64,000 nucleotides of DNA from Candidatus Obscuribacteraceae bacterium (GCA_044226015.1 JBGAHS010000003.1:789364-853363); one strand, 5' to 3'; positions 34,089 through 62,243 are shown, counted from the stretch's first letter. Notes: generated by a model not told the origin, from the sequence alone. Program-made: numbers and translations.

Positions 34089-34346
34089 AACTCCTCCATT
34101 GAGGACATCAATTATAAGCTCTTGATCATTGATGGAGACCGAGCTTTCATCAATCTTTCAGGCAAATCATCGCAGCGGAAAAAGTCGCTGCTTGCATGTT
34201 TTGGCCCATGACACGATCTTGCAAAGTTAGATAGAACACTGCTCTTGAGGTTTCCAAGGTGTGCGAGCTGAGCAAATGCCCTTTTCGAAACTAGCCAAGA
34301 TGAGTGAACTTTAGTGCATCTTGTCATGTTATAGAAGGCCTTAAGG

Positions 34347-34641
34347 TTGATCTGAAATGCCCGTCCTTTATAGATTTTAGTCCTGTATTCATCTCTCCCA
34401 GAACTAAATCGGTGCCCAGCAACTAAGAAATCTCAGTTCCAACTATCTGTCTGTCAAAAGACCTGGCTGAGCATCGACTAGAGATGAGTGTAGTGTTCTG
34501 CTGATCTAATGGTTCCAGTTGGAAGCTTCGACTGTGACTGTTGGATTGGTTTGTTTCGGGTGCAGTTTTCTCTGCGCCTGGTTTCTAGCGTCCATCTAAC
34601 CGAGACGGCACTGCTGTGCGTCTCACACAAGGAGAATCAGT
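34347..34641 (+). promoter_or_regulatory. Putative sigma70 promoter plus structured leader
   Basis: TTGATC-18-TAGATT; 13-bp stem 34384-34396/34480-34492; GAGACG/CGTCTC hairpin just before the AAGGAG RBS. Confidence 0.5.
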
Positions 34642-35733
34642 ATGTCCAACAAGATCGTTCACGCTCGCCACCTCGCCGGCGTCCTCCCTCCCTACCTGCT
34701 GCTCGAGCTCGCTCTGCGCAACCCGGAGAACCCGCAGTACGCCGCCACGCTCGCCGAGACGCAGCGCCTCTTCGGTGCTTCGTCCTTCCGTCTGAATCCG
34801 CACAATCGGTTCGTCGGCGCCGGCAAGAGCAGCATCGAGGTCTACGACGCCAAGGCTGGCAGCAGCCGCCCGGGCACCAAGGCTCGCTTCGAAGGTGAGC
34901 CCGCCACCGGCGACACCGACACCGACAATGCCTACGACTTCACGGTCGCCGTCCGCAAGTACTACACGGACATCCACGGTCGCAACGGCATCGACGGCAA
35001 CGGCATGCGCATGGTGAGCACGGTCAACTACGGCCGCGGCTACAACAACGCGTTCTGGGATGGCTCCCAGATGACCTACGGCAAGGGCGACCAGCAGATC
35101 TTCGCGTCGTTCGTCCTGCTCGACGTGTGCGGTCACGAGATCACGCACGGCGTCACGGAGTTCGAAGCGAACCTGCGCTACTACAAGCAGGCCGGCGCCC
35201 TGAACGAGAGCCACTCCGACGTGTTCGGCAAGCTCATCGAGGCCTACATGAAGAACCAGCCGGCTGACCAGATCGACTGGGTGCTCGGCCGCGGCATCTT
35301 CATGCCTGGCATCAAGGGCGAGGGCATCCGCAACATGCTCCACCCCGGCACGGCCTACAACGACTCGCGCCTCGGCAAGGATCCCCAGCCGGATCACATG
35401 TCGAAGTACAACAACACCTCCGGCGACAACGGTGGTGTGCACTACAACTCGGGCATCATCAACCGCGCGTTCGCCAACTGGGTGCTCGCGCTGGGCGGCT
35501 TCGAGTGGAAGAAGGCTGCGAAGATCTGGTACGCGGCTCGTGCTGCGGCTGGTTCGAACCCGTCGTTCGCCAACCACGCCCACCAGACGGTCGAGGCCTG
35601 CAAGGTCATGGGCACCGCCGATGACCTGAAGAAGCTCAAGGATGCCTGGGAGCTGGTCGGCGTCACCCCGAGCGCCCTCACGTCGCACGACAACGACGGC
35701 GAGGACGACAGCGACGGCATCGAGACGGAGTAA
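34642..35733 (+). CDS. M4 metalloprotease, protealysin-like
   Basis: PPYLL propeptide motif, NNAFWDG, HEITH, GALNESHSD, DNGGVHYNSG. Confidence 0.92.
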   Translation: MSNKIVHARHLAGVLPPYLLLELALRNPENPQYAATLAETQRLFGASSFRLNPHNRFVGAGKSSIEVYDAKAGSSRPGTKARFEGEPATGDTDTDNAYDFTVAVRKYYTDIHGRNGIDGNGMRMVSTVNYGRGYNNAFWDGSQMTYGKGDQQIFASFVLLDVCGHEITHGVTEFEANLRYYKQAGALNESHSDVFGKLIEAYMKNQPADQIDWVLGRGIFMPGIKGEGIRNMLHPGTAYNDSRLGKDPQPDHMSKYNNTSGDNGGVHYNSGIINRAFANWVLALGGFEWKKAAKIWYAARAAAGSNPSFANHAHQTVEACKVMGTADDLKKLKDAWELVGVTPSALTSHDNDGEDDSDGIETE

Positions 35734-35754
35734 TCTCGGCTCGATGTGACTAAA

Positions 35755-35797
35755 GAGGAGGGATGGGAGCTTGCTCTCATCCCTCTTCTGTTTTTTT
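35755..35797 (+). terminator. Long terminator hairpin
   Basis: GAGGAGGGATGGGAGC/GCTCTCATCCCTCTTC plus T-tract. Confidence 0.8.
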
Positions 35798-35903
35798 CCG
35801 GTGCGAAAAATGCACCCATACGCAGGCCCGGTTTTCTGGTGGGGACGTAGTACCACCGACTTCGGGCCTTCGTGCTTTGACAAACATTCACGAAGGAGCC
35901 AAC

Positions 35904-37976
35904 ATGAAGAACAATAACGTTCGCTTGCTCTCGAAACATCGCCTGTTGCAGTCCGCGCTTCCCCTGCGGCTGATCAACCACACCGGCGAGGTGAAGGACA
36001 TCCATCGTCTTTTGCATGCTCACGAGGGCGGACAAATCTGCCGCAAGCCGCTTATCGTTTTGCCCGGTACCGGTCGCAAAACGTTCAAGCTGCCCAACGA
36101 GGCGGAACTGATCGCGGTGTGCGTTCAGTACATCAACAAGGTCGCAGCCGAACAGCGCGCCCGCAAGGCTGCTGCTGCCCAGGCCGCGGCTGCCATGGCT
36201 CGCAAGGCGCCCGTCAACGCTGCGCCCGAGGAGAAAGCTCCTGAGCCTTCCGTCAAGGAAATCCTCGACGGCCCGACCATCGAGCAGCTCATCCCCCTGA
36301 TTCAGGAGGCGGGCCCGACGCTGAACAACAATGGCGGAACGCTGTTCCTCGCCGCTGGTGGTCTGTCGGAATCGATGTACGAAGGTCGCTTCGAGGAGCA
36401 CCTGGCGCCCATCTTCGACCCGCCGCAGGGCATCGAGGAGTGGGCCAAGAAGAACATGCCGGCCAAGTTCAAGGACACGGTCGAAAGCCTTCGCTTCCAC
36501 TGGGAGGAGATCTACAAGCTCTTCATCGGTGACCAGAGCAAGAAGCCGAACGTGCAGGGCGCTCTGCCCAGCGTCATGCATGCGGTGAAGGCGAACTTCC
36601 CGGAAGCCGGCGAGGAAGAGGTGATCACCGCGGCTGTCAGCGTCGTCTGCAAGGCGTTGGCGCAGATCATCAGCGTCCTCAGCATGTGGGACAACAGCTT
36701 CGCTCAGCAGCGTGACGGCAAGTACACCGAGCTCATGTACGTCACGTACACGCTCGAGCAGTGCTTCAAGCTGATGACCGCGAATGCAGGCATTCAGACC
36801 ATCGTGATGCATGTGGGCGACGTCTACATGCCTCGCTACTCTGGCTCTGGTCCTGCCACCATCCCCGGTGCTCGTGGTCCTCTCTGCTCGCACCTGATGG
36901 AAGTGCCGTTCAACATGCGGCATCAGCTCATCACCAACATGCCGGTCTTCACCCACGAATTCCGGCACGACGTCTACGCTGACATTCCGAACCTGCCCGT
37001 GCAGATGGCGCAGGCGGTCATCGACAGCATCGAGCGCAGTGCTGGGTCCTACAAGTTCTCGTCTGAGACGATCTCGCTTGGCGGTCAGAAGGTTCCGACC
37101 CTCGAACTGATCAAGCAGATCTACGTTCAGACGCTGAGCGAGACGGACGCCGACATCGCCGGTGGTGTTCTGTTGACCGGTCCGGCCTTCGGCAAGTCGA
37201 TGGTCACGGTGTTCAGCGCGCTCAATACCATGGGCGGCAGCGTTCTCAACGCTGATGCGATGCTGCGCTCTGGCAGCCGCTACGCGATCGACACCGACAA
37301 CGGCGAGCCGCAGCTGGTCTTCGCTGTGCACATGCCGGACTACCCGCGCGCCTACGTGGTTGCTGCGGCTCTCGATGTGCTGGGCTTCAAGAACGAAGCC
37401 AACGAGATTCGCGCGATTGCCGACCAGGCAGCGGGCGACAAGAAGCCGACCAAGGTGGTCTGGACGAACGGCGACCGTGAGGACAAGCGGTTCAAGTTCA
37501 AGATCGAAGTTCCGTTCAACGACCTCATCCAGGTCGCGCCGGCCGTTGTTGATGCCATCATCAACACCAAGCTGGAGTGCCTGGGCAACCGGTCGATGGG
37601 CGAACTGGTCTTCTTCGATCAGCACAAGCAGGACAAGGTCTTGAAGCTCGCCACGGTGCTCGCCGCTGGCAAGTCCGAGATTCCGGCCGAGGCTGGTGAC
37701 GTGTTCGCAACGTATGTTGCTGCCGCTGCCATCACCGCGTACTGGGACCTCTGCAAGTCCGGCATGCGTCCGCGTCGTGCGTTGGCTCAGGTGGAATCCT
37801 GCGCTCGCAAGATGCTCGACGAAGTCCAGAAGCGTGATGCCGCTAACCCGGCGCCTCAGCCTCCGGCTCCTGCCCCGGTCGAGCCTGCCCCTGCTCCGAC
37901 TGCTCCGGAAACCCCGGCGCAGCCTGCTCCTCAGCCTGAGAAGGCTCCGGAGGGCGAGGGCACGGACAACAACTAG
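35904..37976 (+). CDS. Hypothetical HExxH zinc-metallopeptidase-like protein (690 aa)
   Basis: AAGGAG RBS; HEFRH, ETDAD, HMPDYPR; Pro/Ala tail. Confidence 0.75.
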   Translation: MKNNNVRLLSKHRLLQSALPLRLINHTGEVKDIHRLLHAHEGGQICRKPLIVLPGTGRKTFKLPNEAELIAVCVQYINKVAAEQRARKAAAAQAAAAMARKAPVNAAPEEKAPEPSVKEILDGPTIEQLIPLIQEAGPTLNNNGGTLFLAAGGLSESMYEGRFEEHLAPIFDPPQGIEEWAKKNMPAKFKDTVESLRFHWEEIYKLFIGDQSKKPNVQGALPSVMHAVKANFPEAGEEEVITAAVSVVCKALAQIISVLSMWDNSFAQQRDGKYTELMYVTYTLEQCFKLMTANAGIQTIVMHVGDVYMPRYSGSGPATIPGARGPLCSHLMEVPFNMRHQLITNMPVFTHEFRHDVYADIPNLPVQMAQAVIDSIERSAGSYKFSSETISLGGQKVPTLELIKQIYVQTLSETDADIAGGVLLTGPAFGKSMVTVFSALNTMGGSVLNADAMLRSGSRYAIDTDNGEPQLVFAVHMPDYPRAYVVAAALDVLGFKNEANEIRAIADQAAGDKKPTKVVWTNGDREDKRFKFKIEVPFNDLIQVAPAVVDAIINTKLECLGNRSMGELVFFDQHKQDKVLKLATVLAAGKSEIPAEAGDVFATYVAAAAITAYWDLCKSGMRPRRALAQVESCARKMLDEVQKRDAANPAPQPPAPAPVEPAPAPTAPETPAQPAPQPEKAPEGEGTDNN

Positions 37977-37998
37977 CTGATGGCGAAAGCCTGAGGCG

Positions 37999-38035
37999 GG
38001 GGAAGACGGATGAGAAATCATCCGTTTTCCCTTTT
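37999..38035 (+). terminator. Terminator hairpin
   Basis: GGAAGACGGATGA-GAAA-TCATCCGTTTTCC followed by T. Confidence 0.8.
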
Positions 38036-38118: not shown

Positions 38119-39249
38119 ATGGTGACAGTGCGCAGGTTTCGAAATTTGCATGATCCGCAGTCTGAGAAGGTCTGGAACTCCGAATGTCTAGAAAATCGAG
38201 TAATCATGCGTTCGGGAAAAATGTCTGCTCAGAAGCTAAGCGAGAAAATCTTGGACAATGCTGACGCTGCTCTTGTATATGCCGAAAAGGAGGAGTGGAC
38301 CCGGCTAAAAAAGGGTTATGAGCTATCAATGCCAGGAGCTGAACCTGGTGAGCCTTTAATGCATCTCTATCTTGGGGCTTCTCATAGTGGTTCGATGCTG
38401 ATGGAAGTGCTAGAGAATGGGCAATTGTTGGTCAACCGGTACAATCAAAACAGCCAGCACGATGAATTGATCTTTCTTACAGATGAGGGAAAAGTGGCAG
38501 AGGTGCTGCCTCTTCCGGAAACCAATAGTCTGGTCTGGAACGCCAAATTCAGCCGACCAAGTAGTTTGTTGTTGCTTGTAGATCATCAGGTTTTTAGCTA
38601 TTCAATGCAAGACAAACAATTCCGAAAGTTAGGGAAAAGAAATTCTAACCCTGCCAGTTTTCTTTGCTGTAGCGGCGATGTTCTTGCCTGGTATGAGGAG
38701 CCTGAGATTGTTTTTGTAGATAGAGTTACTGGAGAGATTTCAAGAAAACAAACAGTGAAACCAGAGAAGTTTGGAGGGCATACATTGCAGTTAAAGGCTG
38801 AGCTCTCGCCAGACTCAAAAACTCTTGCTTTGTGCTGCAAGAGTGGAGAAATTATGCTAATTGATGTTGCTAGTGGTGAGATACGCTGTTCACTAAAAGC
38901 AGATTTTCAGATGGTGAGAAAGCTAGTTTTCAGTCCGGATGGCAATTATCTGTTTTTCCAAGAGGCTTATGGTGACTGGGGATTGTATTGCATCGATCTC
39001 CAACAGGGAGAACTAAGCAAAGACTTTCCGCATATTCGCGATACGGCTGGCGGTGATTTCGCTGTTAATACTTGCGGTAAACTGGCAGTTTCATCCAGCA
39101 AGTGGATTGACGTTATTGAGTTACTTAGCATGGAAAAAGTATTGAGATTCCGTGTTGATCATGCTGTTAAGTCTTGCGCAATGAAGTTCTACAGTGGTCA
39201 GCTTTGTGTTCGGACAGACTACGGTTGTTTGAGCCTTTATTCAGTTTAA
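38119..39249 (+). CDS. WGR-like domain plus WD40-like beta-propeller protein
   Basis: N-terminal SEKVW...GK...KKGYE; LSPDSKTLA and FSPDGNYL repeats. Confidence 0.7.
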   Translation: MVTVRRFRNLHDPQSEKVWNSECLENRVIMRSGKMSAQKLSEKILDNADAALVYAEKEEWTRLKKGYELSMPGAEPGEPLMHLYLGASHSGSMLMEVLENGQLLVNRYNQNSQHDELIFLTDEGKVAEVLPLPETNSLVWNAKFSRPSSLLLLVDHQVFSYSMQDKQFRKLGKRNSNPASFLCCSGDVLAWYEEPEIVFVDRVTGEISRKQTVKPEKFGGHTLQLKAELSPDSKTLALCCKSGEIMLIDVASGEIRCSLKADFQMVRKLVFSPDGNYLFFQEAYGDWGLYCIDLQQGELSKDFPHIRDTAGGDFAVNTCGKLAVSSSKWIDVIELLSMEKVLRFRVDHAVKSCAMKFYSGQLCVRTDYGCLSLYSV

Positions 39250-39530
39250 TAAGCTGCGCAGCAAAGCTCTCGCCTTCGCGCTAGCTTCACGAGCCAGCGA
39301 AGAGTTTCATCAAGTCTCGCTTTAACTTAGCGCAAGAATGCTGGTTTTTGACTGATGAGAAAGCATAGAGTCAGTTGTCAACCAACTTTTTTCTTCTTCC
39401 ACCCAGGTTCCAGAAACCAAATCCCAATCCACGCATCTAGAGCTTTTAGCTGTCTTTCAGGACATCGAGCTCAGTCTACCTTGCGTGAATCGGGGTTCCA
39501 CTGCCAGCATCAGCTGGAGAAAGAGGCAAC

Positions 39531-40472
39531 ATGATCCCGTACAATGATGTTCCCCCGTCGGCCAATGAGGCTGCTCTCATCGACCTTCTCGTCCAGCTCA
39601 CCCTGGAGAAGCAGCGCAAGAATCACCAGGCCGGCCAGGTCGCTCGCCGTGATGTTCATTCGAAGTCGCTCGGCGCCGTGAAGGTTCAGGTTCGCGTTCT
39701 CGACAATCTGGCGCCGTCGTTGCAGGTTGGACTCTTCGCCACGCCGGCGACCTACGATGGCGTGATCCGCTTTTCGAACGGAGCGATGGGCCCCACCGGC
39801 TACGACATCATCCCCAACGTCCGCGGCATGGCTCTGAAGCTCTACGGAGTTCCCGGCGCCAAGCAGCTTCCCGGCGAGGAAGCTTCCACCGAGATGGACC
39901 TTTTGATGGCCAACGACCCCGGCTTCTTCATTCCCGTGATCGAGCAGTATGTGCTCGTGACGCAGGGCAAGATGAAGGAACTGGCGCTGAAGCACCCGCG
40001 GACCGTCGGTCTGCTGCTCGGAGCGCTGAAGGTCATCAAGAACCCGCTGACGACGAGCTATTTCTCGCAGTTGCCGTATCGCTTCGGCGCTTATGCCTGC
40101 AAGTTCTCGCTCGTTCCGACTGCGACGACGCCGCTTCTTAGCTTCCCGAACGTGTTTGATCGTGATTATCTGCGGCATGCCGTGGAGCAGACGGTCAACA
40201 ACGGCGGCAGCAAGTTCGTTCTCGGCGTTCAGTTCCAGCGCGAGGGCGAAAGCGTTGAGGATTCGACGCATCGCTGGACGGGCAAGTTCTATCGTCTGGC
40301 CGAAGTGACGGTTCTGCCGCACGCTGGTTCGATCGAGGAATCGCTCGGCGAGGGTCTGTCCTTCAACCCGTGGCGCACTCTGGCTGCTCACGAGCCCCTC
40401 GGCTGGGCGAGCCGCGTCCGCAAGGCTGTCTACGACGCCGACTTCAAGTGGCGCCGAGACCAGAACAAGTAA
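39531..40472 (+). CDS. Catalase-related heme protein (short catalase-like)
   Basis: RRDVHSK distal His, RFSN, RGMALK, FNPW, RVRKAVY proximal Tyr. Confidence 0.85.
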   Translation: MIPYNDVPPSANEAALIDLLVQLTLEKQRKNHQAGQVARRDVHSKSLGAVKVQVRVLDNLAPSLQVGLFATPATYDGVIRFSNGAMGPTGYDIIPNVRGMALKLYGVPGAKQLPGEEASTEMDLLMANDPGFFIPVIEQYVLVTQGKMKELALKHPRTVGLLLGALKVIKNPLTTSYFSQLPYRFGAYACKFSLVPTATTPLLSFPNVFDRDYLRHAVEQTVNNGGSKFVLGVQFQREGESVEDSTHRWTGKFYRLAEVTVLPHAGSIEESLGEGLSFNPWRTLAAHEPLGWASRVRKAVYDADFKWRRDQNK

Positions 40473-40487
40473 TCGCACCTACAGACT

Positions 40488-40528
40488 GGGGGAACGGCGC
40501 GCAAGCGCCGTTTCTCCCTTTCTTTTTC
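40488..40528 (+). terminator. Terminator hairpin
   Basis: GGAACGGCGC-GCAA-GCGCCGTTTC plus T-tract. Confidence 0.85.
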
Positions 40529-40989
40529 GCTTTTGTTGTTACGACTATGGGTAGTAGAGCATTTCTATACTGTGTGTTTGGTAAGTGGTTTCCGCTCTGG
40601 GCCAGACTTTCGGAGGACTTATCAAGATGAAAATACCTATCCAGATTGATGGTGAAGGTCGCGTGATCAACCTTTAGATTGAGTTCGTTAGCACAACGAT
40701 TTTGCTGAGTCATGGCCAGGCGGGGTTTTGCTGAGATCTAAGTCCGGGCAAAAACAATTCCTTTATCTACGAAGGTCATTTCGCTGCGTTTCGTTTCGCT
40801 AAGTCATTCTAAAGGTCTATTGAATGCCGAAGCGCCAAATTACTAGGTTTAGGGCGTCTCTTTTTTCCATCTCAGTAGCGCAGGTAGATCTCTCGAAACC
40901 ACCAAGTCCCAACTCAAATTCAGCAAAATATTCGCCTGATCTATGCGCCGCTTTGAGCTGGTTTCAACCACGAACGAAAGGAAACTGCC

Positions 40990-41553
40990 ATGACCACGAC
41001 GAACTTCGTTATGAGCGAGCAACAGCTTCGCGATATGGCCCTCAACGCCATGCTTCTTGCCCTGGATGCCCAGTCTGCTGCTCTCCACTCGATGGATCGC
41101 GAGCACAGCCTCGGCGTCGAGAATGGTTATTCCATCGACAATCTGCGCCAGCGCTCCAAGGACCTGATTCAGGCTGCTCAGACCGTCGTCAAGACTGCTG
41201 ATTCCATGTCGCTGGATGACCTTCGCGAGAAGATCATGTCTCTGGCGGTGACGTCGTCTCGTCTGAAGACTTCAGCTGACGCCTTCAAAGTCAGCAGCCA
41301 GGGACGGGCGAAGAACCGCTACGAGCACCTGGAACTTTTGCTCGGCGACAACAAGAACAAGGACGGCGTCGTCGGCTCTGCGCCTGCGCGCGACCCGCGG
41401 CAGCTCACTGTCGAAGCCGGCCGAGCCTGCCTGCGAGCTGAGGTCGACGAATATGACGCCTTCGCTCTCCAGATCCACGCGGTCTGCAATCTGGCGCTGG
41501 AATACGCGCTCAACGCGGCCGCCAAAGCCGCACGCAGCTTCTCCAACATCTGA
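40990..41553 (+). CDS. Hypothetical helical protein
   Basis: AAGGA RBS; biased codon usage like neighbouring units. Confidence 0.75.
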   Translation: MTTTNFVMSEQQLRDMALNAMLLALDAQSAALHSMDREHSLGVENGYSIDNLRQRSKDLIQAAQTVVKTADSMSLDDLREKIMSLAVTSSRLKTSADAFKVSSQGRAKNRYEHLELLLGDNKNKDGVVGSAPARDPRQLTVEAGRACLRAEVDEYDAFALQIHAVCNLALEYALNAAAKAARSFSNI

Positions 41554-41577
41554 CAATCTGAACAAGGAGCTTGAATC

Positions 41578-42201
41578 ATGAAATTCCACAATCCTATGGT
41601 TGTGCAGAGCTTCAGCCTGCAACGTGGAGTGACGTTCACGCTGAATAGCTGTCTGGGAACGCAGGACGACCCCGGTGTGGAGAACATCGTGACCGACCTG
41701 CTCGTTCTCGGCGAGATGGCGAATTGCCGCCTGCCTGCCGTCGAAGCCCTCGACGCCAAGCTCGGAGGCAAGGTCGCCGCAGCTCTGGCTGATGTGAACT
41801 TCACCGGCCAGGCTGGCGAGAGCGTCCTGGTGAATGTCAATGACCCGACGGCGTCCCAGAAGTACATTCTGGTCATCGGGCTCGGCGACATCGCGCACTA
41901 CAACGGACGCAGCGTCTGTGGCTTTACGCGCAAGGTTCTCGAAGTCGCCAAGGAACTCGGCGTCGAGAAGATCAGCATTCCGTTTTTCCCCAATCGGCAG
42001 ACGGAAGAGAAGGTCTGTCTCGCCGCAACGGCAGCCACAATGGTTTGCCGCGTGACGATGTTCATTCCGAGCCTTCCGAACCTGAAGGAAATCGAGGTAC
42101 TCTCGACTCCTCAGGCTCGGCGGCATCTTCAAGATGGGCTGTTCGGTCGCACGCCGCGCTGCATCATCTGCACCAACCCCGAGTTGGGTCATCAGAGCTA
42201 G
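41578..42201 (+). CDS. Stand-alone leucyl aminopeptidase N-terminal (M17_N / macro-like) domain protein
   Basis: FTGQAGES, ILVIGLG, SIPF; C-terminal CIIC; AAGGAG RBS. Confidence 0.65.
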   Translation: MKFHNPMVVQSFSLQRGVTFTLNSCLGTQDDPGVENIVTDLLVLGEMANCRLPAVEALDAKLGGKVAAALADVNFTGQAGESVLVNVNDPTASQKYILVIGLGDIAHYNGRSVCGFTRKVLEVAKELGVEKISIPFFPNRQTEEKVCLAATAATMVCRVTMFIPSLPNLKEIEVLSTPQARRHLQDGLFGRTPRCIICTNPELGHQS

Positions 42202-42217
42202 TTCGTAAGAACTGGCG

Positions 42218-42252
42218 GCGGAGAGGCTAACGCTTCTCCGCTTTTTCTTTTT
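42218..42252 (+). terminator. Terminator hairpin
   Basis: GCGGAGAG...CTTCTCCGC plus T-tract. Confidence 0.8.
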
Positions 42253-42485
42253 ATTTTGGTGCTATTAGCAGTAGTACTATAGAGAATCGCGAAGTTGTTC
42301 AGCAAAAAATAGCTCGAGCCAGCTTGTTATGAAATACACGCATTGCTAAATTCTGCGGTTCTGGAAAGTAGGCAGCTGAACAGTTACATATGTGGAACAG
42401 CTTTTGCTCTAGGTGCTACGATATTCAGTTTGCCCGACCTGGCATTTGCTGCCAGTTTAGAGCACTTAACAGCGTTGGAGTGTGC

Positions 42486-44258: not shown

Positions 44259-44331
44259 GCGATTTAAAAGTCTAAAAGAGCCAGGAAATTTAAGAGAGGA
44301 CGTCAAAAAGAGCACCAGACGTCAAAAAGGC

Positions 44332-44376: not shown

Positions 44377-44390
44377 AGTCGGAACACATC

Positions 44391-49051: not shown

Positions 49052-49061
49052 GGAGGGCACC

Positions 49062-52649: not shown

Positions 52650-53228
52650 TCAGTCGGCCCACTCAATTGACTCTGCCATGCGTCGGAAAAATTGAATGCC
52701 TTTCAGATGCATTTCTTTAGCTGTAACTCTCAAATACAGCTCGTAGATTTTTCTTCCGCTCTCGTCGGCCTCTACAAAGAGCCCACCATAAAAAGTGTCA
52801 GTTTTGTCTTCATCGCGAAATTCGCCATCAACCTTCAAAACAGCTTTGCCGTTAATCACAATGACCTGTGCGGTTTTTAGGAAAAAGTCTGGACTATAGC
52901 CAGTCAAATGCCGTGGATAGGTGTATTGATTGAATCCAGCAAGGTCCAATACCCGAGATAGCGAGCGTATTTGCCCCGGGCTCAAAGTTACTGCCTGCTC
53001 GGCTTCTCTATGCTGCAAGAGCAAAGCATGAAAGTTTTCACCATCGTCTTCGCTTTCAAGTTTGCCACGATAAAAGATGCCAATTTCCATTTCTTGCTCT
53101 TTTCCGGGCATTGTGAGTTGGATGATTGGCAGCTCCATGCGATTAGACTGTGGAACACGCAAAGTATTCCTGCGCCAATCTGGCGGAACCGTTATTTTTT
53201 TGAAAGGACCGATGTCTGTTATGTCCAT
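52650..53228 (-). CDS. Hypothetical protein
   Basis: 192 aa ORF, 3 nt from the upstream gene. Confidence 0.75.
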   Translation of the reverse strand: MDITDIGPFKKITVPPDWRRNTLRVPQSNRMELPIIQLTMPGKEQEMEIGIFYRGKLESEDDGENFHALLLQHREAEQAVTLSPGQIRSLSRVLDLAGFNQYTYPRHLTGYSPDFFLKTAQVIVINGKAVLKVDGEFRDEDKTDTFYGGLFVEADESGRKIYELYLRVTAKEMHLKGIQFFRRMAESIEWAD

Positions 53229-53231
53229 GAA

Positions 53232-54602: not shown

Positions 54603-54860
54603 AGTTCAGGTTGCCGTTGAATAGATCGTTTTGCCGTCTTTTCCGAGATGATAAGGGAAAAAGTAGCAGCAGACAACACGGCTCTTGATAACCTCGTTCA
54701 AGCGTTGTATCCGGCGAGTTTGAGGAGTACTGTTCTGAGTCGCTTTGGGAACTATACGATAGGAAATGCTTAAGATCATTTCATCTTTGCTGTGGGCATC
54801 GAAGACAGCGGAGGTACACGGTTTCGCGTATCTCGGAAAGATTCAGTATGCAGATTTCAA

Positions 54861-55739
54861 TCAGTAGTTAAGAACCAGCACTTCGCTAATTTTTCCACGT
54901 CCGCTTGCTTTGCAATTTATCGCTCGCATGGCATAAACTGTCTCAACTCTGAATTCTGAATAGAGGTCGCGAATAAATGGGCAATCGGAATTGCTCAGCA
55001 TAAGCTTGCAGCCTCTACGGTCGAGTTCAATGAATGTATCTGCAAGCCTCTCCTGGTCCTCTGCAGAAAACGAGTTCTTTGTATAAGAGGTGAAATTAGA
55101 AGTACTGCTAAGAGGATGATATGGTGGGTCGAAGTAAATAAAATCGCCTTTTCGAGCCTTTTTCAAAATGTCTTCAAAAGGACGATGAACAATATTCGTG
55201 TTCTTCAAAGCCTCGCTGCAGGCCCGCAACAAAGGCTCATTTCGGGTGCTTGGGTTTTTATAGAAACCAAAAGGAACATTGAAATTTCCTTTGCTGTTCA
55301 CGCGATAAAGTCCGTTAAAGCAAGTTTTGTTTAGGAAGATGAGGCGAGAGGCGCGCTCAATGTTGTTTAAGAGTGAGGTATCTTGTGCTCTTATTTTGTA
55401 AAAGTACTCCTCGGTGTTTTCATGTTTCTGTAGGTCTTTGAGCAGCGGAGAAACATTATCGCGAATAACCGTGTAACAGTTTACAAGCTCGCTATTCATA
55501 TCTGATAGCTCGGCAAAGAAGTCTCCATGCAGGTTGCGCAAGTGAAAGAAAACTGCGCCACCTCCAGTGAAGGGTTCGAAATATCGGTTTATGGACTCAG
55601 GAAAAAATTCTTCAAAGCTTGCAATAAGCTGAGATTTGCCTCCCGCCCATTTCAGAAAGGGTCCGACTCTATCAAGACGTTGGTTAGTAGGAAGAGCCCT
55701 TAATGGTGGCTGATTTATAAGACGGGAACGACGGCTCAC
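54861..55739 (-). CDS. dam: Dam/DpnM-family DNA adenine methyltransferase (orphan)
   Basis: FLKWAGGK, YFEPFTGGGAV, FNGLYRVN, DPPY, LSNS. Confidence 0.88.
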   Translation of the reverse strand: MSRRSRLINQPPLRALPTNQRLDRVGPFLKWAGGKSQLIASFEEFFPESINRYFEPFTGGGAVFFHLRNLHGDFFAELSDMNSELVNCYTVIRDNVSPLLKDLQKHENTEEYFYKIRAQDTSLLNNIERASRLIFLNKTCFNGLYRVNSKGNFNVPFGFYKNPSTRNEPLLRACSEALKNTNIVHRPFEDILKKARKGDFIYFDPPYHPLSSTSNFTSYTKNSFSAEDQERLADTFIELDRRGCKLMLSNSDCPFIRDLYSEFRVETVYAMRAINCKASGRGKISEVLVLNY

Positions 55740-55900
55740 GGCATATCCTTTTCACATATAAAGTGGTCTCAGATTATATGCCCGGCTTTTGTCTTAAGCA
55801 AGCGCATTAAGCGGCTAAGTCTGGCTTTTTATGCGGCTTTATGAGACGAACCTTTATAAGTCAGTCATGCGACTTGCTAAGAGGGAGCCGGTTTTCTTGC

Positions 55901-55940
55901 AAAAGAAAAGAGGTGCCACCGTCAGCGGTGGCACCTCTTT
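55901..55940 (-). terminator. Terminator hairpin (likely bidirectional)
   Basis: AAAGAGGTGCCACCG-TCAG-CGGTGGCACCTCTTT. Confidence 0.8.
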
Positions 55941-55957
55941 GTCTACTTTTGAATTTC

Positions 55958-56389
55958 TTATTGGACTACGATCAATCTTCCATCGATAGCAGCTGCCAGT
56001 TTATCTGGCTCATCTGTTCCTATAAGAACGCTTTTGCCATTGTTGAAATTCACCTCAACGGCATCTAAACCATAAATGTTGTAGAGCCAGGCATAACCTG
56101 TGAAGTGAACGCCCCAACCTTGCAGAGGGGTTGTGCGTACTGCATGAACAGAAGTGACATCGTGCAGATTGAATGTTTTTTTTATGGGTCCATCACCGAA
56201 TTGTATTTTGATTTCAGAGTCGTCTACTTCGACGGTGAGAGAGCGAAAATTGTACACAGTGGCGCCGAGCAGTCCTGTTAAAGCCAGGCGAGCCAGAAAT
56301 CCTGGAGGTGTCAGGCCCAGCGCGAGGCTGGCAATGCCCGCACCGAGCAGTATTTTTTCAGGAATTTTTTGAGTATGACTATAGTGCAT
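55958..56389 (-). CDS. Membrane protein with bacterial PH-like domain
   Basis: Two TM, then GWGV...YNIYG...IGTDEP. Confidence 0.75.
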   Translation of the reverse strand: MHYSHTQKIPEKILLGAGIASLALGLTPPGFLARLALTGLLGATVYNFRSLTVEVDDSEIKIQFGDGPIKKTFNLHDVTSVHAVRTTPLQGWGVHFTGYAWLYNIYGLDAVEVNFNNGKSVLIGTDEPDKLAAAIDGRLIVVQ

Positions 56390-56485
56390 GAAAATTGCCT
56401 CTAGTTGTAAAAAGCTAAAGGGGATCTTAGCCCAATCGAGAAGAATCTGTTTGATTCCCGGGCTCATTGTGATGAAATTTAAGTG

Positions 56486-57631
56486 CTAATGAAGTCCATT
56501 TTGATTAGGGCTGTTACTGTAGTTAGAGCTTGGAATTGGCTCTGGGTAGTCTTGATAGATGCGCAGTAGTGTTGCCTTGTCTCGTTTTGTCAGGGCTGGC
56601 CAGACCGCACTTGAATTTGAAAAGAACATTACATCCTTATTGCTCGGAGAATGTCCCACCATACCCAGCGCGTGTCCTATTTCATGCAAGCAAGTTTTTT
56701 TCATTTCGTCGCTGCTCAGAGGTTCTCCTGTGCGGCGATTATTGACCAAAATACAAACATTTGCTGAGAGAATTTGTTTTGTGCCATCGGCACCGGGGTG
56801 CTTTTCTGCAATGACTTCCGCTACGCCAAGCTCAACATTATTGCCTTCATTCTTCAAAAATGCTGGGTCGTCTGTCCATGTGCAGGCAAGCGATGCAAGC
56901 CTGGCGTCGGTAACAAGGCGATAAGAGAGTTTGTGGTGCGAGGCCTTCATCCAGTCATCAATTGCTGCAAGAAGAATGTAATTGTATTCTTCGCGAAAAC
57001 CCTGCACGGGGCGTCCACTCTCATCTTTTCCAAAAGAGATAAAGATGCTTAGCGGCACTTTGTTTTGAGGCCAGCGGCGAACGCAGCCATCGTCGCAAAT
57101 GCTCGGTAGGTAATCGGGCGACTGCGGGTCTGATTCGACGTGTTCTCGCTTGTATTTCTCTAGAGCTCCAATCATGTTTTGAATGGTCTGGCTGTCTTTC
57201 GGGTGTGCCTTTTTTAGATAGCCTCGAAAAAACTGAAGCGCATCATCAGTGCGATTTTGCACCTGATAGCAGCTGCCGATGTTCACCAGGCAATCTGTCA
57301 TTTTGGGATCAATCTCGAGAGCCTTTTTGAACTCTCCAATAGCCAAGTCGTAGAGGGCGCATTCGTTATAGCAGCAGCCCAGGTTATAGTGCATAGCAGC
57401 ACTTTCCGGCCACAATTGCGCTGCCTGTTCCAGAGGTTTTCTTGCTTTGAATGGTTTTTTTGCCTCAAGAAGTCTCGTTCCTTCAACAAGCAGATTACAG
57501 GCTTGCTCTTGTTGTTGGTTTTGCGGATTGAGTTCTAGTTTCTTATTTGCTGCTGCAGATGCAAGGGCAAGCAAGAATATCAGCAATGCACTTGCTGATA
57601 TTCTTGTTATCGCTCCTGAGATGCGTTGCAA
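56486..57631 (-). CDS. TPR plus matrixin (M10) metallopeptidase
   Basis: Signal peptide, TPRs, HEIGHALGMVGHS, Met-turn DVM. Confidence 0.88.
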   Translation of the reverse strand: MQRISGAITRISASALLIFLLALASAAANKKLELNPQNQQQEQACNLLVEGTRLLEAKKPFKARKPLEQAAQLWPESAAMHYNLGCCYNECALYDLAIGEFKKALEIDPKMTDCLVNIGSCYQVQNRTDDALQFFRGYLKKAHPKDSQTIQNMIGALEKYKREHVESDPQSPDYLPSICDDGCVRRWPQNKVPLSIFISFGKDESGRPVQGFREEYNYILLAAIDDWMKASHHKLSYRLVTDARLASLACTWTDDPAFLKNEGNNVELGVAEVIAEKHPGADGTKQILSANVCILVNNRRTGEPLSSDEMKKTCLHEIGHALGMVGHSPSNKDVMFFSNSSAVWPALTKRDKATLLRIYQDYPEPIPSSNYSNSPNQNGLH

Positions 57632-57703
57632 TTATCCCCCGAAATTTGGAGTCCGCCGGAATGGCGGCATATCCCGCAATTCGTATCATTTGTTCCCTTT
57701 CTT

Positions 57704-58813
57704 TCATTGTTCATCACAGGTCGGATAGTCTACTGAAACGAAGTGAGGAAAGTAGGCGTAAGGGTCCTTCTGATGTGCACTGAGGACCCCAGGATTTATA
57801 GCGTAGCTGAGGCTGAGTTTGGCAGGTGGCGAAACCTGCTCAGGGTGAGCTTTTCCGGCATAGCAAAAGCCGCGCTTCAGTTGCTTTTCTGGAATTTCGT
57901 AGAGTCGTTTTTCCTGTGACCAATCCTCATTGAAGTTCTTTGTTGTTCTGCCGACTATGTTTTTTCCCATGCCATTTTGGCTGTATACACAAAGATAACC
58001 AGTGCGAACTTTGATGAGAGAAGCTTCTGCTGCGGCTTGCTTCCAGAGGTAATGTATGTTTTTGCTTTCTTTGGACCAGAAGATTTTTTTGTTTTCGTCC
58101 CGACAGAGAAATTCTGCTTGCACTAAGTTTCTGCTGTCAATCTGTTGGCATGGAATGCGCGCAAGAAAGGCTTCTTTATTCGTTTCATTTAAGCCTATTG
58201 AATAGACAAAGTTGTTCTCGACTAGAGCAGCCACTCCAATGTGAATCCCTCCATTTTGTTCTACCCTTACTGTTCGCATTTTCCAGAAGGGAGGAGCCGC
58301 TTCAGGGTTGAATACAACGTGAATTTCATCTCCAATCCAGGAAAATCCAAATGGATCTTCTTTCAAGGATTTCACGGGAGCGATTACTTTTTGAAAACAA
58401 TAGAGTCGTCCGCAGTTTTTGACTGCGTCACCAGGCCACAGCCAGTGTATTTTGTCTGAACTTTGAAAAAAGGCTTCTCGTCCATTTTTGTTGGTGTAGA
58501 AGCTTATCTTGTTGCTGGTAGTATCTTGCACAGCAATAGTATTATGAACCATTCGTCGTGGATTGCTGCCATCGCCAATGGTGTCGATAAAACTGTCTCC
58601 AAAAAGCCATAGAACTGTTTTTTCGTTTATCGCAACACTATATGCTCCGTCGCCTCCTGACCAGTTGGAGTCGTGCAGAAAGCAATCCTCTAAGCTTCTG
58701 CTGGAGGCAAGTGCTATTGAACAGAGCGAGATACAGACAATTGCAATTTGGAATAGTAATCGCACTAGTTTTTGCCTGTTGGTTTTAACGGTATTATTGC
58801 AAGAGCTTAGCAC
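57704..58813 (-). CDS. DUF4185/DUF5005-like beta-propeller protein
   Basis: WSGGDGAYS, LWLFGDSF, YAGKAHP, YFPHF. Confidence 0.75.
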   Translation of the reverse strand: MLSSCNNTVKTNRQKLVRLLFQIAIVCISLCSIALASSRSLEDCFLHDSNWSGGDGAYSVAINEKTVLWLFGDSFIDTIGDGSNPRRMVHNTIAVQDTTSNKISFYTNKNGREAFFQSSDKIHWLWPGDAVKNCGRLYCFQKVIAPVKSLKEDPFGFSWIGDEIHVVFNPEAAPPFWKMRTVRVEQNGGIHIGVAALVENNFVYSIGLNETNKEAFLARIPCQQIDSRNLVQAEFLCRDENKKIFWSKESKNIHYLWKQAAAEASLIKVRTGYLCVYSQNGMGKNIVGRTTKNFNEDWSQEKRLYEIPEKQLKRGFCYAGKAHPEQVSPPAKLSLSYAINPGVLSAHQKDPYAYFPHFVSVDYPTCDEQ

Positions 58814-59404: not shown

Positions 59405-59608
59405 ATGTTCTCCATTTTGCATCACCCTGTTGTGCTTTTGATTGGGTATGTACTGAAGTTCTCTGTTGGTGTACTGCTCTTGTCTGTTATTGCAAACGAC
59501 TGGTACTGGCGTGCTCGACACGAGAGAGCGCGTGCTCAGCAACAACGACTTCAAGACTTGTTCGACGGCGTAAATCATGATGATGGTTTCCCACCCGAAT
59601 ACTACTAA
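59405..59608 (+). CDS. Small membrane protein
   Basis: N-terminal TM; precedes the C39-like gene by 12 nt. Confidence 0.6.
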   Translation: MFSILHHPVVLLIGYVLKFSVGVLLLSVIANDWYWRARHERARAQQQRLQDLFDGVNHDDGFPPEYY

Positions 59609-59620
59609 CACGGAGAAGAG

Positions 59621-60382
59621 ATGAAAAGGAAGACCAAACTGCTACTGCCGGAAGGTGCAATCAAACTCACTCTTCCGGCACTCTCTGGCTATAGCCCGCA
59701 GCGTTTTCGTAAACGAAGCGCTCTGCTTGAGAGTCTGAGCCTTACTAATATTCACCAGATTCCTGGTGGATCTATCTCAGTTCCTGCGCCTGACTTGCCG
59801 CAGCCGACTGATTACTCATGCGCTCTGGCAGCTGCCTCGATCGCACGTATGTACGGAGTTGGTCCAGACTCCATGGAAGAGTTCATGCAAGGAATGAACA
59901 CTGGTGTGAACGGCACCAGTCCAGGCAATATCGTTCGTTACCTCAACCGGCTCGGATTACGAGCAAGCATCCAGCGCCGAATGACGAAAGAATCGCTCAT
60001 CAAGCTGCTGGATAAGCAAATCTCTACTGTACTGGACATCCAAGCCTGGGCTAAGGATCGCTCTGTATACAACGACGTAAACAAGAACGATAACGGACAC
60101 TACGTTGCAGCAATCGGCTATTCGGAGGAAGCTCCAGAGCTGCTTTCTGAAGATGGAAGCAGAAGAAAGTTGGTCAAGGGTGAAAACGAAACCTACTTCT
60201 ACTTCATGGACCCCAGCATTCTCTGCCGATATGGTTTTCTGCCCTGGGCGGAGCTAGATCGGCGCTGGCACGACGATGAAGGCACCGACGAAAAGCCTAA
60301 GCCGAATTGGCACATGGGAATCGTGATTCGACCCAATGGTCAGAAACCTGTTCATGCCTCGATGGCAGAGTTTATTGCCTGA
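59621..60382 (+). CDS. C39-like cysteine peptidase
   Basis: QPTDYSC, GHYV, FMDP catalytic pattern; GGAG RBS. Confidence 0.8.
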   Translation: MKRKTKLLLPEGAIKLTLPALSGYSPQRFRKRSALLESLSLTNIHQIPGGSISVPAPDLPQPTDYSCALAAASIARMYGVGPDSMEEFMQGMNTGVNGTSPGNIVRYLNRLGLRASIQRRMTKESLIKLLDKQISTVLDIQAWAKDRSVYNDVNKNDNGHYVAAIGYSEEAPELLSEDGSRRKLVKGENETYFYFMDPSILCRYGFLPWAELDRRWHDDEGTDEKPKPNWHMGIVIRPNGQKPVHASMAEFIA

Positions 60383-60383
60383 C

Positions 60384-60445
60384 AGTGTGCTGCACATCGA
60401 CTTCAAAAAAGTCCATGTGCAGCACACTTTTCGCCTGTTTTTGAC
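60384..60445 (+). terminator. Terminator hairpin
   Basis: AGTGTGCTGCACAT/ATGTGCAGCACACT stem plus T-rich tail. Confidence 0.8.
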
Positions 60446-60896
60446 TTTTAAATGGCCAATTTTTGACCACATTTGCACTTACATGTGGCGAGGCTGTGTT
60501 AACTTTAGCAGGCTGGCATGACAGTTCTAAGCAGGACGGACTTTTCCGGTCGCGCATCTCGCCAAATTGTTCTTGCTGACAAAGGGAATTACAAAACACT
60601 TATTCGCAGCCTGCTTTCTAGATATTGGCGCAAGGAGTGGAAATTGCTAGTTTTGGATACAGTTCTGAATTCCAACCTCTTGCAGCATTAGGTAACTTGT
60701 CGAAACCCCTGAGCTAGATACCATCCTTGCCTGACGAAGTCCCTGTAACTATGGGAACGTTGACGCATTGATCAGCTCAGCGCAGAGTTATTGGGAGAGT
60801 GGATGACCACTCCCTCAATTGCTTTGTGACTCGGACGACCTGACTTGCAAGCCGCATCGCTCAGCGATGTGTTTTATCAAGAAAGGAGAGAGAACC

Positions 60897-62081
60897 ATGA
60901 GCTTCCAACTCTTGTTTCTCATAGTGCTTGCCGGTCTGGTCGGCCCCCTTCTCTCTGGCAACAAGCGTTTCGCTGTGCCACTAGTAGTTGGGGAGATCAT
61001 TGCAGGTATAGCTATCGGAAACAGCGGCTTTCACTGGGTGAACCCAGCTGACCCCGCGTTCAAGTTTCTTGCCCTGGTGGGCTTTGCATTGCTGCTCTTT
61101 CTCGTCGGCATTAAGTTGCCTCTCAGAGATGGCGGATTGCGTTCTGCTCTGAAAGTCGGTGCTAAAGCTTCGGTCATATCATTCTTGGTAGCAGTGCCGT
61201 TTGCTTTTGCGCTCAGCTTCATCACGGGCATTCACAACATCGGTATCTTCGTCTTGCTCTGTGCCTGCAGTTCCACGAGCATGGTCGTGCCGATGCTCCA
61301 TGAGCGCCACCTCACCGGACCTGTCATCATGCTGACCACAGCGTGGATCGCAATCTGCGATATTGTGGCCATGATTGCGCTGCCTCTTGCCACCGCTAGC
61401 GGTGACACTGAGACGGTCGCGATTGGTGTCGGTGTAGTGGGCGTTGTGGCCATCGCCTGCCTCGTCGGCATGCGTTTCTTCCGCTCTTCGGTTATTGGTG
61501 AACATCTGAGGCAGCTTTCCCGAAGCAAGCATTGGGCACTCGACCTCCGTCTCTCCCTTGCGATGCTCTTCGGGCTCGCCTGGTTGGCGACGGTTTTTGG
61601 AACCAGCGTGCTCGTTGCGGGTTTTGCAGCAGGCATGGTTGCTTCGTCGCTGGGTCACCCGCGGCGCTACTACAAGCAGCTTATCGGAATCGGTGAAGGC
61701 TTCCTGGTGCCGGTGTTCTTTGTGCATCTTGGTGCTAGCATCAATGTTCAAGAGCTGTTCACGTCTACCAGCAATATCGCTCTTGCTGTGATGATTTGCG
61801 CGGCATCTATATCTGTGCACATGATCGCTGCGAAGTGGTCTGGCTTGCCGAAGGGCTCTGGCTGGGCGGCGAGTTCTCAGATGGGTGTTCCTGCAGCACT
61901 GGTTTCAATCGGTCTATCTGGTGGCTTGCTCACAGCAGGACAAGGCGCGGCAATAATTGCAGCGGCTTTGCTTTCTCTCATCGGAAGTAGTTTCGGTGTG
62001 AGTCAACTGAGCACCGCACCTGGTGTCGTCATCGACAGTTCCTTCCCCAAGAAGAAGAAAGACGACGACGAAACAGATTGA
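60897..62081 (+). CDS. Cation:proton antiporter (CPA family)
   Basis: PLVVGEIIAG, CSSTS, ICD, GFAAG, PVFFV; many TM helices; AAGGAG RBS. Confidence 0.88.
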   Translation: MSFQLLFLIVLAGLVGPLLSGNKRFAVPLVVGEIIAGIAIGNSGFHWVNPADPAFKFLALVGFALLLFLVGIKLPLRDGGLRSALKVGAKASVISFLVAVPFAFALSFITGIHNIGIFVLLCACSSTSMVVPMLHERHLTGPVIMLTTAWIAICDIVAMIALPLATASGDTETVAIGVGVVGVVAIACLVGMRFFRSSVIGEHLRQLSRSKHWALDLRLSLAMLFGLAWLATVFGTSVLVAGFAAGMVASSLGHPRRYYKQLIGIGEGFLVPVFFVHLGASINVQELFTSTSNIALAVMICAASISVHMIAAKWSGLPKGSGWAASSQMGVPAALVSIGLSGGLLTAGQGAAIIAAALLSLIGSSFGVSQLSTAPGVVIDSSFPKKKKDDDETD

Positions 62082-62084
62082 ATC

Positions 62085-62151
62085 GAAGTCGTTCCCGGCG
62101 TTAGCAAGTCTTGAAAAAGACAAGCTGACGCCGGGACTTCTATTCTTCTTT
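62085..62151 (+). terminator. Long terminator hairpin
   Basis: CCCGGCGTTAGC...GCTGACGCCGGG stem with an inner GTCTT-GAAA-AAGAC. Confidence 0.75.
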
Positions 62152-62243
62152 GTAGCAATACGATGAGGCGTAGTAGAGGCTTTTCAAACAAATGTATTCC
62201 TGAAGGCTCGCCGTTAGTGGGTTACGCTCTTATTCAAATCCGT

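Follow-up and report, generated by a model that had tools for sequence, protein, structure and literature searches.

Why does one bacterial chromosome carry two sets of genes that use different codons, interleaved along the same DNA? The question is posed by a 64,000-nucleotide stretch from a Candidatus Obscuribacteraceae bacterium (GCA_044226015.1 JBGAHS010000003.1:789364-853363), referred to throughout as the window, in which an initial annotation made from the sequence alone had described about eight self-contained, GC-rich gene units alternating with ordinary genes. Obscuribacterales are little-known relatives of the cyanobacteria, an order that is widespread and uncultured; the named homologues of a window protein come from Candidatus Obscuribacterales and Melainabacteria. 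The host genome (G000) comprises 8.19 Mb at ~47% GC in 13 contigs, and the window is the final 64 kb of contig C6. Genes were called with a purpose-built scorer of open reading frames (ORFs), yielding 5924 genes at 86% coding, and a codon likelihood score was used to assign class membership among the 5467 genes of at least 100 amino acids (aa). We refer to the second, GC-rich codon class as class H and to the remaining genes of the same chromosome as ordinary, and describe both by GC3 and A3, the shares of G+C and of A at third codon positions.

The alternation of units and ordinary genes is confirmed. All of the units named earlier are present, and the genes interleaved between them have GC3 0.41-0.46 and A3 0.23-0.31, compared with 0.67-0.93 and 0.01-0.08 in named unit genes. 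Five of the latter (M4, HExxH, catalase-like, S53 and FtsH), previously said to lack TTA, CTA and TCA, contain none of these in 2618 codons, as opposed to 3.5% of codons in ordinary genes; the uninterrupted antisense ORFs opposite them are a by-product of this codon use. The suspected gradation of the bias is real, with a C39-like peptidase (GC3 0.54) and an antiporter (0.60) intermediate and an ORF cut by the window's end at 0.55. The long terminators also stood up, six of them folding at z -3.3 to -7.5, and the window yielded no integrase, transposase or att-like direct repeat, as first reported.

The class reaches far past the window and is confined to a zone centred on the replication origin, oriC, and to one further block. 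It comprises 204 of the 5467 genes, in ~90 units, with GC3 of 0.77 compared with 0.45 in ordinary genes. These genes are distributed as 148 in C6:395-853 kb and C1:1130-1287 kb, 49 at the end of C8 and the start of C9, and 7 elsewhere, several of which are probably false frames across repeats. The cut ORF (63365..64000, minus strand) encodes GPVHP repeats, and this repeat links the end of C6 to that of C1, on which the zone carries on; because the two ends are joined in this way, the main zone can be placed at ~ -417 to +185 kb around oriC, with 449 genes in total. At its centre, in the window, dnaA and dnaN (26249..29300, plus strand) coincide with the sign change of GC skew that marks the origin, and are themselves of the ordinary codon class. 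The second block covers ~60 kb on a single strand with one end site (G000:C8:713000-735115 and C9:1-38500), and sits near the C9 skew reversal provided the C8-C9 join is correct; it holds further diverged copies of the lipid-catabolism operon and many paired small membrane proteins. In the origin zone class H shows no strand bias (80 of 158 genes leading). The zone's ordinary genes are fully ordinary (GC3 0.46), and those adjoining H units are unaffected (0.461 and 0.454 vs 0.460), so that chromosomal position by itself fails as an explanation. Ribosomal genes lie outside class H, with GC3 0.34-0.55 over the S10-spc-alpha cluster and 0.50 in tuf.

Class H units carry a promoter, a ribosome-binding site and a terminator-plus-palindrome of their own, along with codon use unlike that of ribosomal genes, and the earlier proposal of a separate expression or translation class is thereby supported. 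The promoter is a bipartite sigma70-type element, TTG(A/C)WY-17/18-TAGGGT(G), mostly 80-400 nt upstream of the first ATG. It exceeds 14 bits in 24 of 80 H 5' regions and in 3 of 400 ordinary ones, an enrichment that is partly circular because H regions served to train the model; at 18 bits and above there are 8 intergenic matches in the zone and 1 elsewhere. A Shine-Dalgarno-like motif accompanies 0.71 of H genes vs 0.28 of ordinary genes, a gap that shrinks when strong sites are judged by duplex energy (0.54 vs 0.42), and 199 of the 204 H genes start with ATG. Folds below -30 kcal/mol occur at 81% of 47 H 3' ends and 20% of 300 ordinary ends. The genome encodes nine long sigma70-family factors, candidate readers of the H promoter.

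The end palindrome, TACKAY-N5-RTMGTA, which the initial annotation missed, follows the U-tract and is common at H 3' ends. It was found at 33 of 66 junctions between an H or intermediate 3' end and an ordinary gene and at 6 of 12 convergent H ends, and at 5 of 199 internal junctions, 1 of 72 junctions between an H 5' end and an ordinary gene, and 6 of 203 junctions between ordinary genes. All 35 matrix matches of at least 17 bits lie in the zone, on which the matrix was trained, while a held-out matrix (trained on C6:395-790 kb) gave 15 matches across the remaining 285 kb of DNA with H genes, compared with 13 in 7.5 Mb. Of 79 oriented ends, drawn from three genomes, 45 have the palindrome starting 8-11 nt past the final T4 run, while its distance from the hairpin varies; the 8-11-nt spacing presumably matches the front edge of RNA polymerase. 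The geometry of terminator plus palindrome suggests protein-assisted termination. A second end motif, TTYGRCYTTTAAA, has 8 copies, all of them in the zone, although a looser variant is divided 6 vs 6. Several copies lie near three near-identical 240-aa H genes in tandem (G000:C6:698682-701899; GC3 0.93-0.94). No 5' boundary motif of H units was found, Rfam gave no match but a tRNA, and a search with RHH_5 (PF07878) for a TrcR-like binder returned sub-threshold matches only and no convincing homologue. Three weaker palindromes follow genes in a resident prophage-like region (G000:C11:1179000-1197000), judged as such by eye from protein starts.

The bias is not restricted to silent positions. 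In addition to GC3, class H differs in GC1 (0.61 vs 0.55 in ordinary genes) and in its spacers (0.52 vs 0.44), but not in GC2. Codon shifts in H and in ribosomal genes correlate at 0.39 and are opposite in G:A boxes. When H is set against ordinary genes of a GC-rich relative as a GC3-matched control, AGR makes up 0.08 of Arg codons vs 0.29 and ATA 0.04 of Ile codons vs 0.14, TAC/TAT is 2.6 vs 0.9, and TAA ends 36 of 90 genes vs 22 of 131; C is preferred in two-fold boxes and T tolerated in four-fold boxes. Avoidance of AGR and ATA, two-fold C and TAA stops are a signature of highly expressed genes. Class H shares with such genes these features and a strong ribosome-binding site, but here ribosomal genes stand outside the class, the class is spatially confined, and the GC shift is at the level of DNA. 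Regression of the H shift yields a GC push of 1.58+-0.18 and a ribosomal-like term of 0.47+-0.14 (R2 0.72). No gradient runs along units (GC3 0.722 in first vs 0.698 in last genes, p 0.16). In four hosts with backgrounds of 0.41-0.72, H GC3 is 0.74-0.84, a level partly fixed by cut-off in the three relatives because their zone sets were selected by GC3. Taken together, H codon use looks like that of the highly expressed genes of a GC-rich bacterium. Plain translational selection was rejected, as ribosomal and elongation factor genes do not share the codon pattern. The initial annotation had paired that explanation with synteny of the units, and this second half did hold: the units are syntenic across relatives. 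A link between A-avoidance and tRNAs with CNN anticodons fits Glu and Gly, not Ala, and was dropped.

Several observations indicate that the class has a long history in this family. Adjacent to one another and beside an M1 aminopeptidase, the genes for the M4 peptidase and the HExxH protein of the window's first unit form a pair in G001-G004, and all three genes lie in one cluster in G012 and G017. The pair is still H at 62-77% identity (G002-G004), the divergence of ordinary genes, while the M1 aminopeptidase beside unit 1 switches class: it is ordinary here at 0.46, and has 0.72, 0.67 and 0.54 in three relatives. Units are syntenic next to dnaA-dnaN in G001 and G012. A match to the HExxH protein is present in 68 of 82 family genomes, some of them weak only, and 26 of 30 loci reach a GC3 of 0.66 or more. 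For the YeaH operon, GC3 is 0.71 or higher at 26 of 30 loci, the exceptions being the four smallest genomes. In trees of two H proteins (each of 30 sequences, built with FastTree and rooted at the midpoint, support values not used) most congeners group together, with G001 apart from its own genus in both and one g27 HExxH copy nested in genus g1. Because gene trees mostly follow genus, class H is, on these sequence comparisons, old and maintained, not freshly inserted. A recent genomic island, with patchy presence and amelioration with age, is contradicted by the wide presence of the HExxH protein, the retained GC3 and the synteny at dnaA-dnaN. The proposal that units were acquired or re-inserted one transcript at a time is likewise unsupported: they are syntenic, GC-rich at ordinary divergence and grouped by genus in trees, and in an independent strain the missing gene is an ordinary one (an X2 contig has 44 letters in place of 38135-39185, with the flanking units still there).

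The origin-centred layout was recovered in four genera altogether, the host's and three others. In the closed genome G031, 26 of the 27 exact sites fall within 2.42-3.04 Mb, or -415 to +206 kb from dnaA at 2.83 Mb. Stretches sampled in G031 (n=20, most zone stretches being picked at sites), G052 (n=20) and G012 (n=24) contain GC-rich units and 3' sites in the vicinity of dnaA. G012, in which 1 of 13 zone stretches had been placed on a known site, has 13 sites of at least 11.5 bits (11 of them at least 14), all in the 13 stretches at 210-940 kb and 0 in the 11 outside. The zone of G052 is lopsided (~1.7-2.74 Mb, with dnaA at 2.58 Mb), and one 14-bit match lies far outside it. Among 20 exact-match loci in five relatives most genus g1 sites follow an H or intermediate 3' end, while those in G010, G015 and some in G017 do not clearly do so. 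Counts of exact palindromes are insensitive: the first pattern is not above its reversed control in most relatives, and the second is clear in some relatives only (27 vs 3, 21 vs 3 and 16 vs 5, but 0 vs 4 in G003). In 40 kb sampled from G053 there are GC-rich genes and no site, and G068 has 3 sites in 30 kb with little codon shift.

A chimeric assembly, raised at the outset as a possible artefact, is not what produced the pattern, since neither uneven depth nor breaks at class boundaries were seen. One X1 contig covers 35127-52500 at flat depth, though X1 may be the assembly's source, and X2 contigs from another study cover 39185-45642 and 45885-52500, crossing class boundaries. Of five bins tested, three (G006, G032 and G033, rated ~90% complete) have no dnaA match, and the absence of H genes from them is therefore not evidence. 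Their lack of dnaA is consistent with composition-based binning dropping the origin zone. If mixed-composition zones are dropped in binning, published gene inventories of the order may be biased.

What does the class encode? Pfam was scanned with 175 of the 177 H proteins that lie outside the window and are 130 aa or longer (two near-duplicates were omitted) and matched 93 of the 175. By hand count ~21 are proteases (M3, M4, M17, M28, M29, M41, M48, M50, S41, TldD/PmbA and Clp-type ATPases) and ~29 are lipid-catabolic (acyl-CoA dehydrogenases and ligases, hydratases, thiolase, patatins, acyltransferases, PLD and ABC-D), both being raw counts within class H. Others belong to MoxR-vWA-DUF58 modules and PrkA-YeaH-SpoVR, or are peptide and amino-acid transporters and salvage enzymes. 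An N-terminal hydrophobic stretch is found in 38% of H proteins vs 20%. No replication, virion, conjugation, integrase or mobility family appeared among the 175 proteins in Pfam; PHROG matched 3 of 87, none structural; and viral contigs held no relatives of two H proteins, in scans that detect close relatives only. A prophage or giant phage was rejected given the lack of virion and replication genes among the H proteins scanned with Pfam (175) and PHROGs (87).

We tentatively favor, with confidence that falls a little short of even, a reading of the units as an ancient, vertically inherited, insulated and very highly expressed regulon for feeding, that is, for the digestion of biomass, held in an origin-centred domain. 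One sigma70-family factor would turn the units on to a very high level at one stage of life, probably when prey or dead cells are being consumed, and proximity to oriC would add gene dosage. A dimeric DNA-binding protein on the palindrome would stall RNA polymerase at the U-tract, a roadblock that would shield interleaved housekeeping genes from read-through. Membership would follow the transcription unit, not position, and a gene leaving the regulon would therefore drift to ordinary codon use. We favor this reading because the site geometry fits a termination roadblock and because importers and beta-oxidation genes fit a feeder; such enzymes would suit the feeding cell's own cytoplasm. The feeding programme may nevertheless have been built to run inside another bacterium.

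A number of observations weigh against a feeding regulon. The zone's ordinary genes also include peptidases and lipid enzymes. One 60-kb H block is distant from oriC. Promoter spacers and upstream flanks of H units have 0.51-0.55 GC vs 0.44-0.45, values possibly inflated by unrecognised small genes or neighbouring units, and in 24 paralogue pairs replacements favor GC-rich amino acids (GARP for FYMINK, 331:196); since the GC shift extends to promoter flanks and amino acids, tRNA-level selection is inadequate. Ribosomal genes, which are expected to be highly expressed in growth phase, shift the other way (GAG/GAA x0.5 vs x2.0 in H; ACG/ACA x0.6 vs x11.6), and there is no signal of translational accuracy (odds ratio 1.09 vs 1.04). 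The reading leaves the GC push unexplained, as the optimum is that of a GC-rich cell and not of the host's ribosomal genes, and the sigma factor and site-binding protein are themselves postulates.

An account that addresses the GC push directly would make the units cargo for expression in the cytoplasm of GC-rich prey, and bears on an operon outside the zone (G000:C10:63035-71720) with genes for a small membrane protein, a VirB4-like ATPase, another membrane protein, a VirD4-like protein of 1047 aa and a Replic_Relax protein (the relaxase, G000:C10:63035-63886), the last from what we take to be the MOBC family. The relaxase-like gene was found in 55 of 57 other genomes of the order (53 of 55 and 2 of 2 in the order's two families) and in 0 of 143 other genomes of the class. 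Where present it gives one full-length match, mostly 60-82% identical, with D175, E193 and D195 invariant in 13 sequences; its codon use is ordinary, and no solved relative was found by sequence. Family matches and invariant residues thus place VirB4, VirD4 and a relaxase with an acidic motif together, as in T-DNA-like machinery. Border sequences at both cargo ends were not found, with a site at 1 of 72 H 5' junctions and no 5' motif. The operon could be linked to class H, and merits its own study whatever that link. A second VirB4-like ATPase, called as pieces of 699 and 193 aa, lies near TadE-like genes and large membrane proteins (G000:C1:182200-201300), and the 70-kb circular contig C2, with a VirD4-like gene, a probable relaxase and ordinary codon use, is a plasmid. 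FtsK/SpoIIIE gave only weak matches in 4 of 5 genomes searched (in the host, to a VirB4-like protein), and no canonical FtsK was found with that family.

On the prey-cargo account, which we consider unlikely though far from negligible, the core VirB4-VirD4-MOBC-like machine would deliver origin-proximal DNA in a T-DNA- or Hfr-like manner, or else the origin domain would become exposed to prey enzymes on contact; portable promoters, ribosome-binding sites, terminators and GC-rich codons would lead the prey to make the enzymes that digest it, and the palindrome would be a nick site or insulator. Such delivery would explain the GC push and, at once, the portable signals and the presence of a core relaxase, as well as codon use resembling that of a GC-rich bacterium's highly expressed genes at a near plateau across hosts (the YeaH operon; H at 0.74-0.84). 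GC-rich promoter flanks would avoid AT-binding silencers, and the excess of N-terminal hydrophobic stretches and the near-universal relaxase, beside VirD4-like and VirB4-like genes and with invariant acidic residues, point the same way. Delivery of DNA to prey by a type IV secretion system (T4SS) has been proposed for the relative Vampirovibrio, at least in the part of PMC4451040 drawn on here. However, nothing connects the relaxase to the palindrome, with no site near the operon (best 9.9 bits); the spacing of the sites agrees with a termination roadblock; importers and beta-oxidation enzymes would be of little use inside prey; and the small genomes G068 and G099 retain the relaxase while the codon class fades. 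In a characterised MOBC oriT, five direct repeats stand 70-120 bp away from nic, according to the relevant portion of PMC12857230, and no such oriT-like direct repeats were seen beside the palindromes, nor was a 5' border motif found.

The remaining explanations seek the GC shift in the history of the DNA. The class could be the domesticated remnant of a large GC-rich mobile element with moron-like cassettes, or be refreshed by one, and have been shuffled by inversion among origin-proximal genes. Composition at all positions is like that of native DNA from a ~58% GC genome, and the pure, co-oriented 60-kb block, whose paralogues share 23-61% identity with other H genes and which lies downstream of an integrase-bearing island, is in keeping with it, as is the g27 HExxH copy nested in g1. 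We nevertheless find this origin doubtful: the 175 H proteins include no replication, virion, conjugation or integrase family, PHROG matched 3 of 87 and none structural, no close relatives of two H proteins were found on viral contigs, the trees are mostly genus-coherent, and a relic should have ameliorated by the time proteins are 60-77% identical, as happened with the M1 gene. Phage morons and integron cassettes are self-contained promoter-gene-terminator units, or carry one site per cassette; here inheritance is vertical across the family, multi-gene units reach tens of kb, no integrase is linked, and the genes are GC-richer than the host. Local GC-biased substitution, for example GC-biased gene conversion from conspecific exchange via the conjugation machine that also sharpens codon selection, would account for a shift covering non-coding DNA and amino acids and for the existence of a core relaxase and T4SS, but appears improbable because the bias neither spills over into adjacent ordinary genes nor forms a gradient along units, and because the shift far exceeds known bacterial effects of this kind. 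Most improbable by a wide measure is re-insertion via an RNA intermediate that removes silent adenines, an option floated in the initial annotation, or movement of integron-like cassettes at the palindrome. In favor of cassettes, the single site at the 3' end of a unit is reminiscent of a cassette site, and a XerC/D-like gene lies at the zone edge. However, untranscribed promoters and flanks share the GC shift, A is retained in spacers (0.27 vs 0.28) and in stop codons (TAA in 91 of 204), no reverse transcriptase match was found in the closed carrier genome G052, and neither such match in the host lies in the zone; silent-adenine depletion thus does not extend beyond codons. As for cassettes, units are not flanked by sites on both sides, convergent units have sites in common, and no joint at a palindrome was found among the contig joints listed. 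An integron cassette array was rejected, the only match being the XerC/D-like gene (45.7 bits against an integron-integrase cut-off of 265) and the units having their own promoters and both orientations.

We found no description of this class among the articles listed in a literature search. The palindrome was rejected as a RacA/ram or ParB/parS site, its consensus differing from that of ram and, we presume, also from that of parS. The likeness to RacA/ram in sporulating Bacillus subtilis lies in the many palindromic protein-binding sites across an origin domain (-412 to +200 kb; PMC4914108, in part), and here too sites cluster around oriC, over a span nearly equal to it (-417 to +185 kb, and -415 to +206 kb in G031). 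The ram sequence, TGACGCCGGCGTCA, differs, however, and the sites described here stand at a fixed distance after the terminators of one gene class; the available part of PMC4914108 mentions no codon class for B. subtilis. TrcR half-sites of Anabaena (ATACTACA/TGTAGTAT) resemble each palindrome arm, but TrcR sites overlap promoters and repress, in the excerpt of PMC10272220 used, whereas ours follow terminators. Agrobacterium T-DNA and the T4SS model of Vampirovibrio chlorellavorus share with class H foreign-style expression signals in a carrier with VirB4, VirD4 and relaxase (PMC12857230 and PMC4451040, each in part); unlike T-DNA, as the same portion of PMC12857230 presents it, the units are dispersed over a chromosome and have a bacterial style, the relaxase is of a MOBC-like kind, the motif stands at one end, and transfer is hypothetical. 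The core T4SS of Patescibacteria is similarly chromosomal, lineage-wide, minimal and without a mobile element, but is mostly without a relaxase (103 survey genomes have one), in the sections of PMC12102498 used, whereas a conserved relaxase-like gene is core to this order.

Two interleaved regimes of codon use and base composition have been kept on one chromosome through the history of a whole family, which is unexpected from amelioration or ordinary translational selection, and the class provides a natural experiment on the determinants of GC content in bacteria. The promoter, the end site, ~200 genes and the core relaxase operon offer a testable handle on the order's lifestyle. In the boldest version, to which we assign a low but appreciable probability, Obscuribacterales would be predators or parasites of GC-rich bacteria whose domesticated core conjugation machine puts origin-proximal DNA into prey, where ~200 genes in the prey's dialect would digest it from within. 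If true, this would be a bacterium-to-bacterium counterpart of T-DNA.

Within the window, the first unit on the plus strand opens with a class promoter at 34347..34376 (-35 TTGATC, -10 TAGATT; 12 bits), followed by the M4 (thermolysin-family) metallopeptidase gene (34642..35733; GC3/A3 0.91/0.01) and the gene for the 690-aa HExxH protein (35904..37976; 0.80/0.04), and closes with a terminator of a 16-bp hairpin (37998..38033) and no palindrome above threshold. The HExxH protein is widespread in the family, has no match in Pfam, NCBIfam or PHROG, and in Atlas meets only unnamed clusters, with recognition under threshold. Genome-wide there are 13 M4 peptidase paralogues, 4 of them H or near-H and 9 ordinary. 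An interleaved ordinary beta-propeller gene (38206..39249, plus strand), the one missing from the X2 contig, separates this unit from the next, which has a promoter at 39348..39376 (TTGACT-17-TCAGTT; 13 bits), a catalase-like H gene (39531..40472; 0.79/0.03; PF00199 in many relatives), and a terminator hairpin, U-tract and palindrome, TACGAC-N5-GTAGTA at 40540-40556, within 40488..40556, all on the plus strand. The third unit, also plus, has the window's 18-bit promoter at 40820..40849 (TTGAAT-18-TAGGTT), two H genes at 40990..42201 for a 187-aa unknown protein (0.75/0.06) and, from 41578, an M17 N-terminal-domain protein (0.74/0.08), and a terminator hairpin with U-tract and palindrome (42217..42276; palindrome at 42260-42276).

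An ordinary gene combining TPR and alpha/beta hydrolase domains follows (42486..44258, plus strand; GC3 0.42). On the minus strand, the H unit at 44260..46040 encodes an S53 (kumamolisin-type) peptidase (44391-46040; 0.76/0.08) and ends, within the same interval, in a terminator followed by a variant form (type TTTT.GACTTTTAAA) of the second end motif. The plus-strand H unit at 46925..49268 comprises an FtsH paralogue (0.67/0.05) and a 68-aa ORF from 49062; its terminator is followed by one palindrome (together 49315..49393; palindrome at 49377-49393), and this palindrome is common to it and a convergent minus-strand H unit (49500..52190) that encodes a 93-aa protein at 51909 (0.93/0.01), a MaoC dehydratase (GC3 0.69) and an ABC-D-type transporter (0.78/0.08). 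A run of ordinary genes on the minus strand (52650..58813; GC3 0.41-0.46) includes a Dam-like methyltransferase and a TPR protein, among others. Two intermediate plus-strand units complete the series: 59405..60453, with a short ORF, the C39-like peptidase, a hairpin and the second end motif at 60439, and 60897..62175, with the Na+/H+ antiporter, a terminator and the window's strongest palindrome (62159-62175, 19.7 bits).

Elsewhere in the window, 16237-20196 encodes a UvrD-like helicase with zinc ribbons and a GC-rich low-complexity stretch near 16500-18000, a GC peak that is not class H. No tRNA array that could serve as a second tRNA pool was found in the zone. The sole array, on C10 (G000:C10:356333-358584), comprises 18 tRNAs with many UNN anticodons and the only tRNA-Ser(TGA) found, and is reminiscent of the cyanobacterial trn operon.

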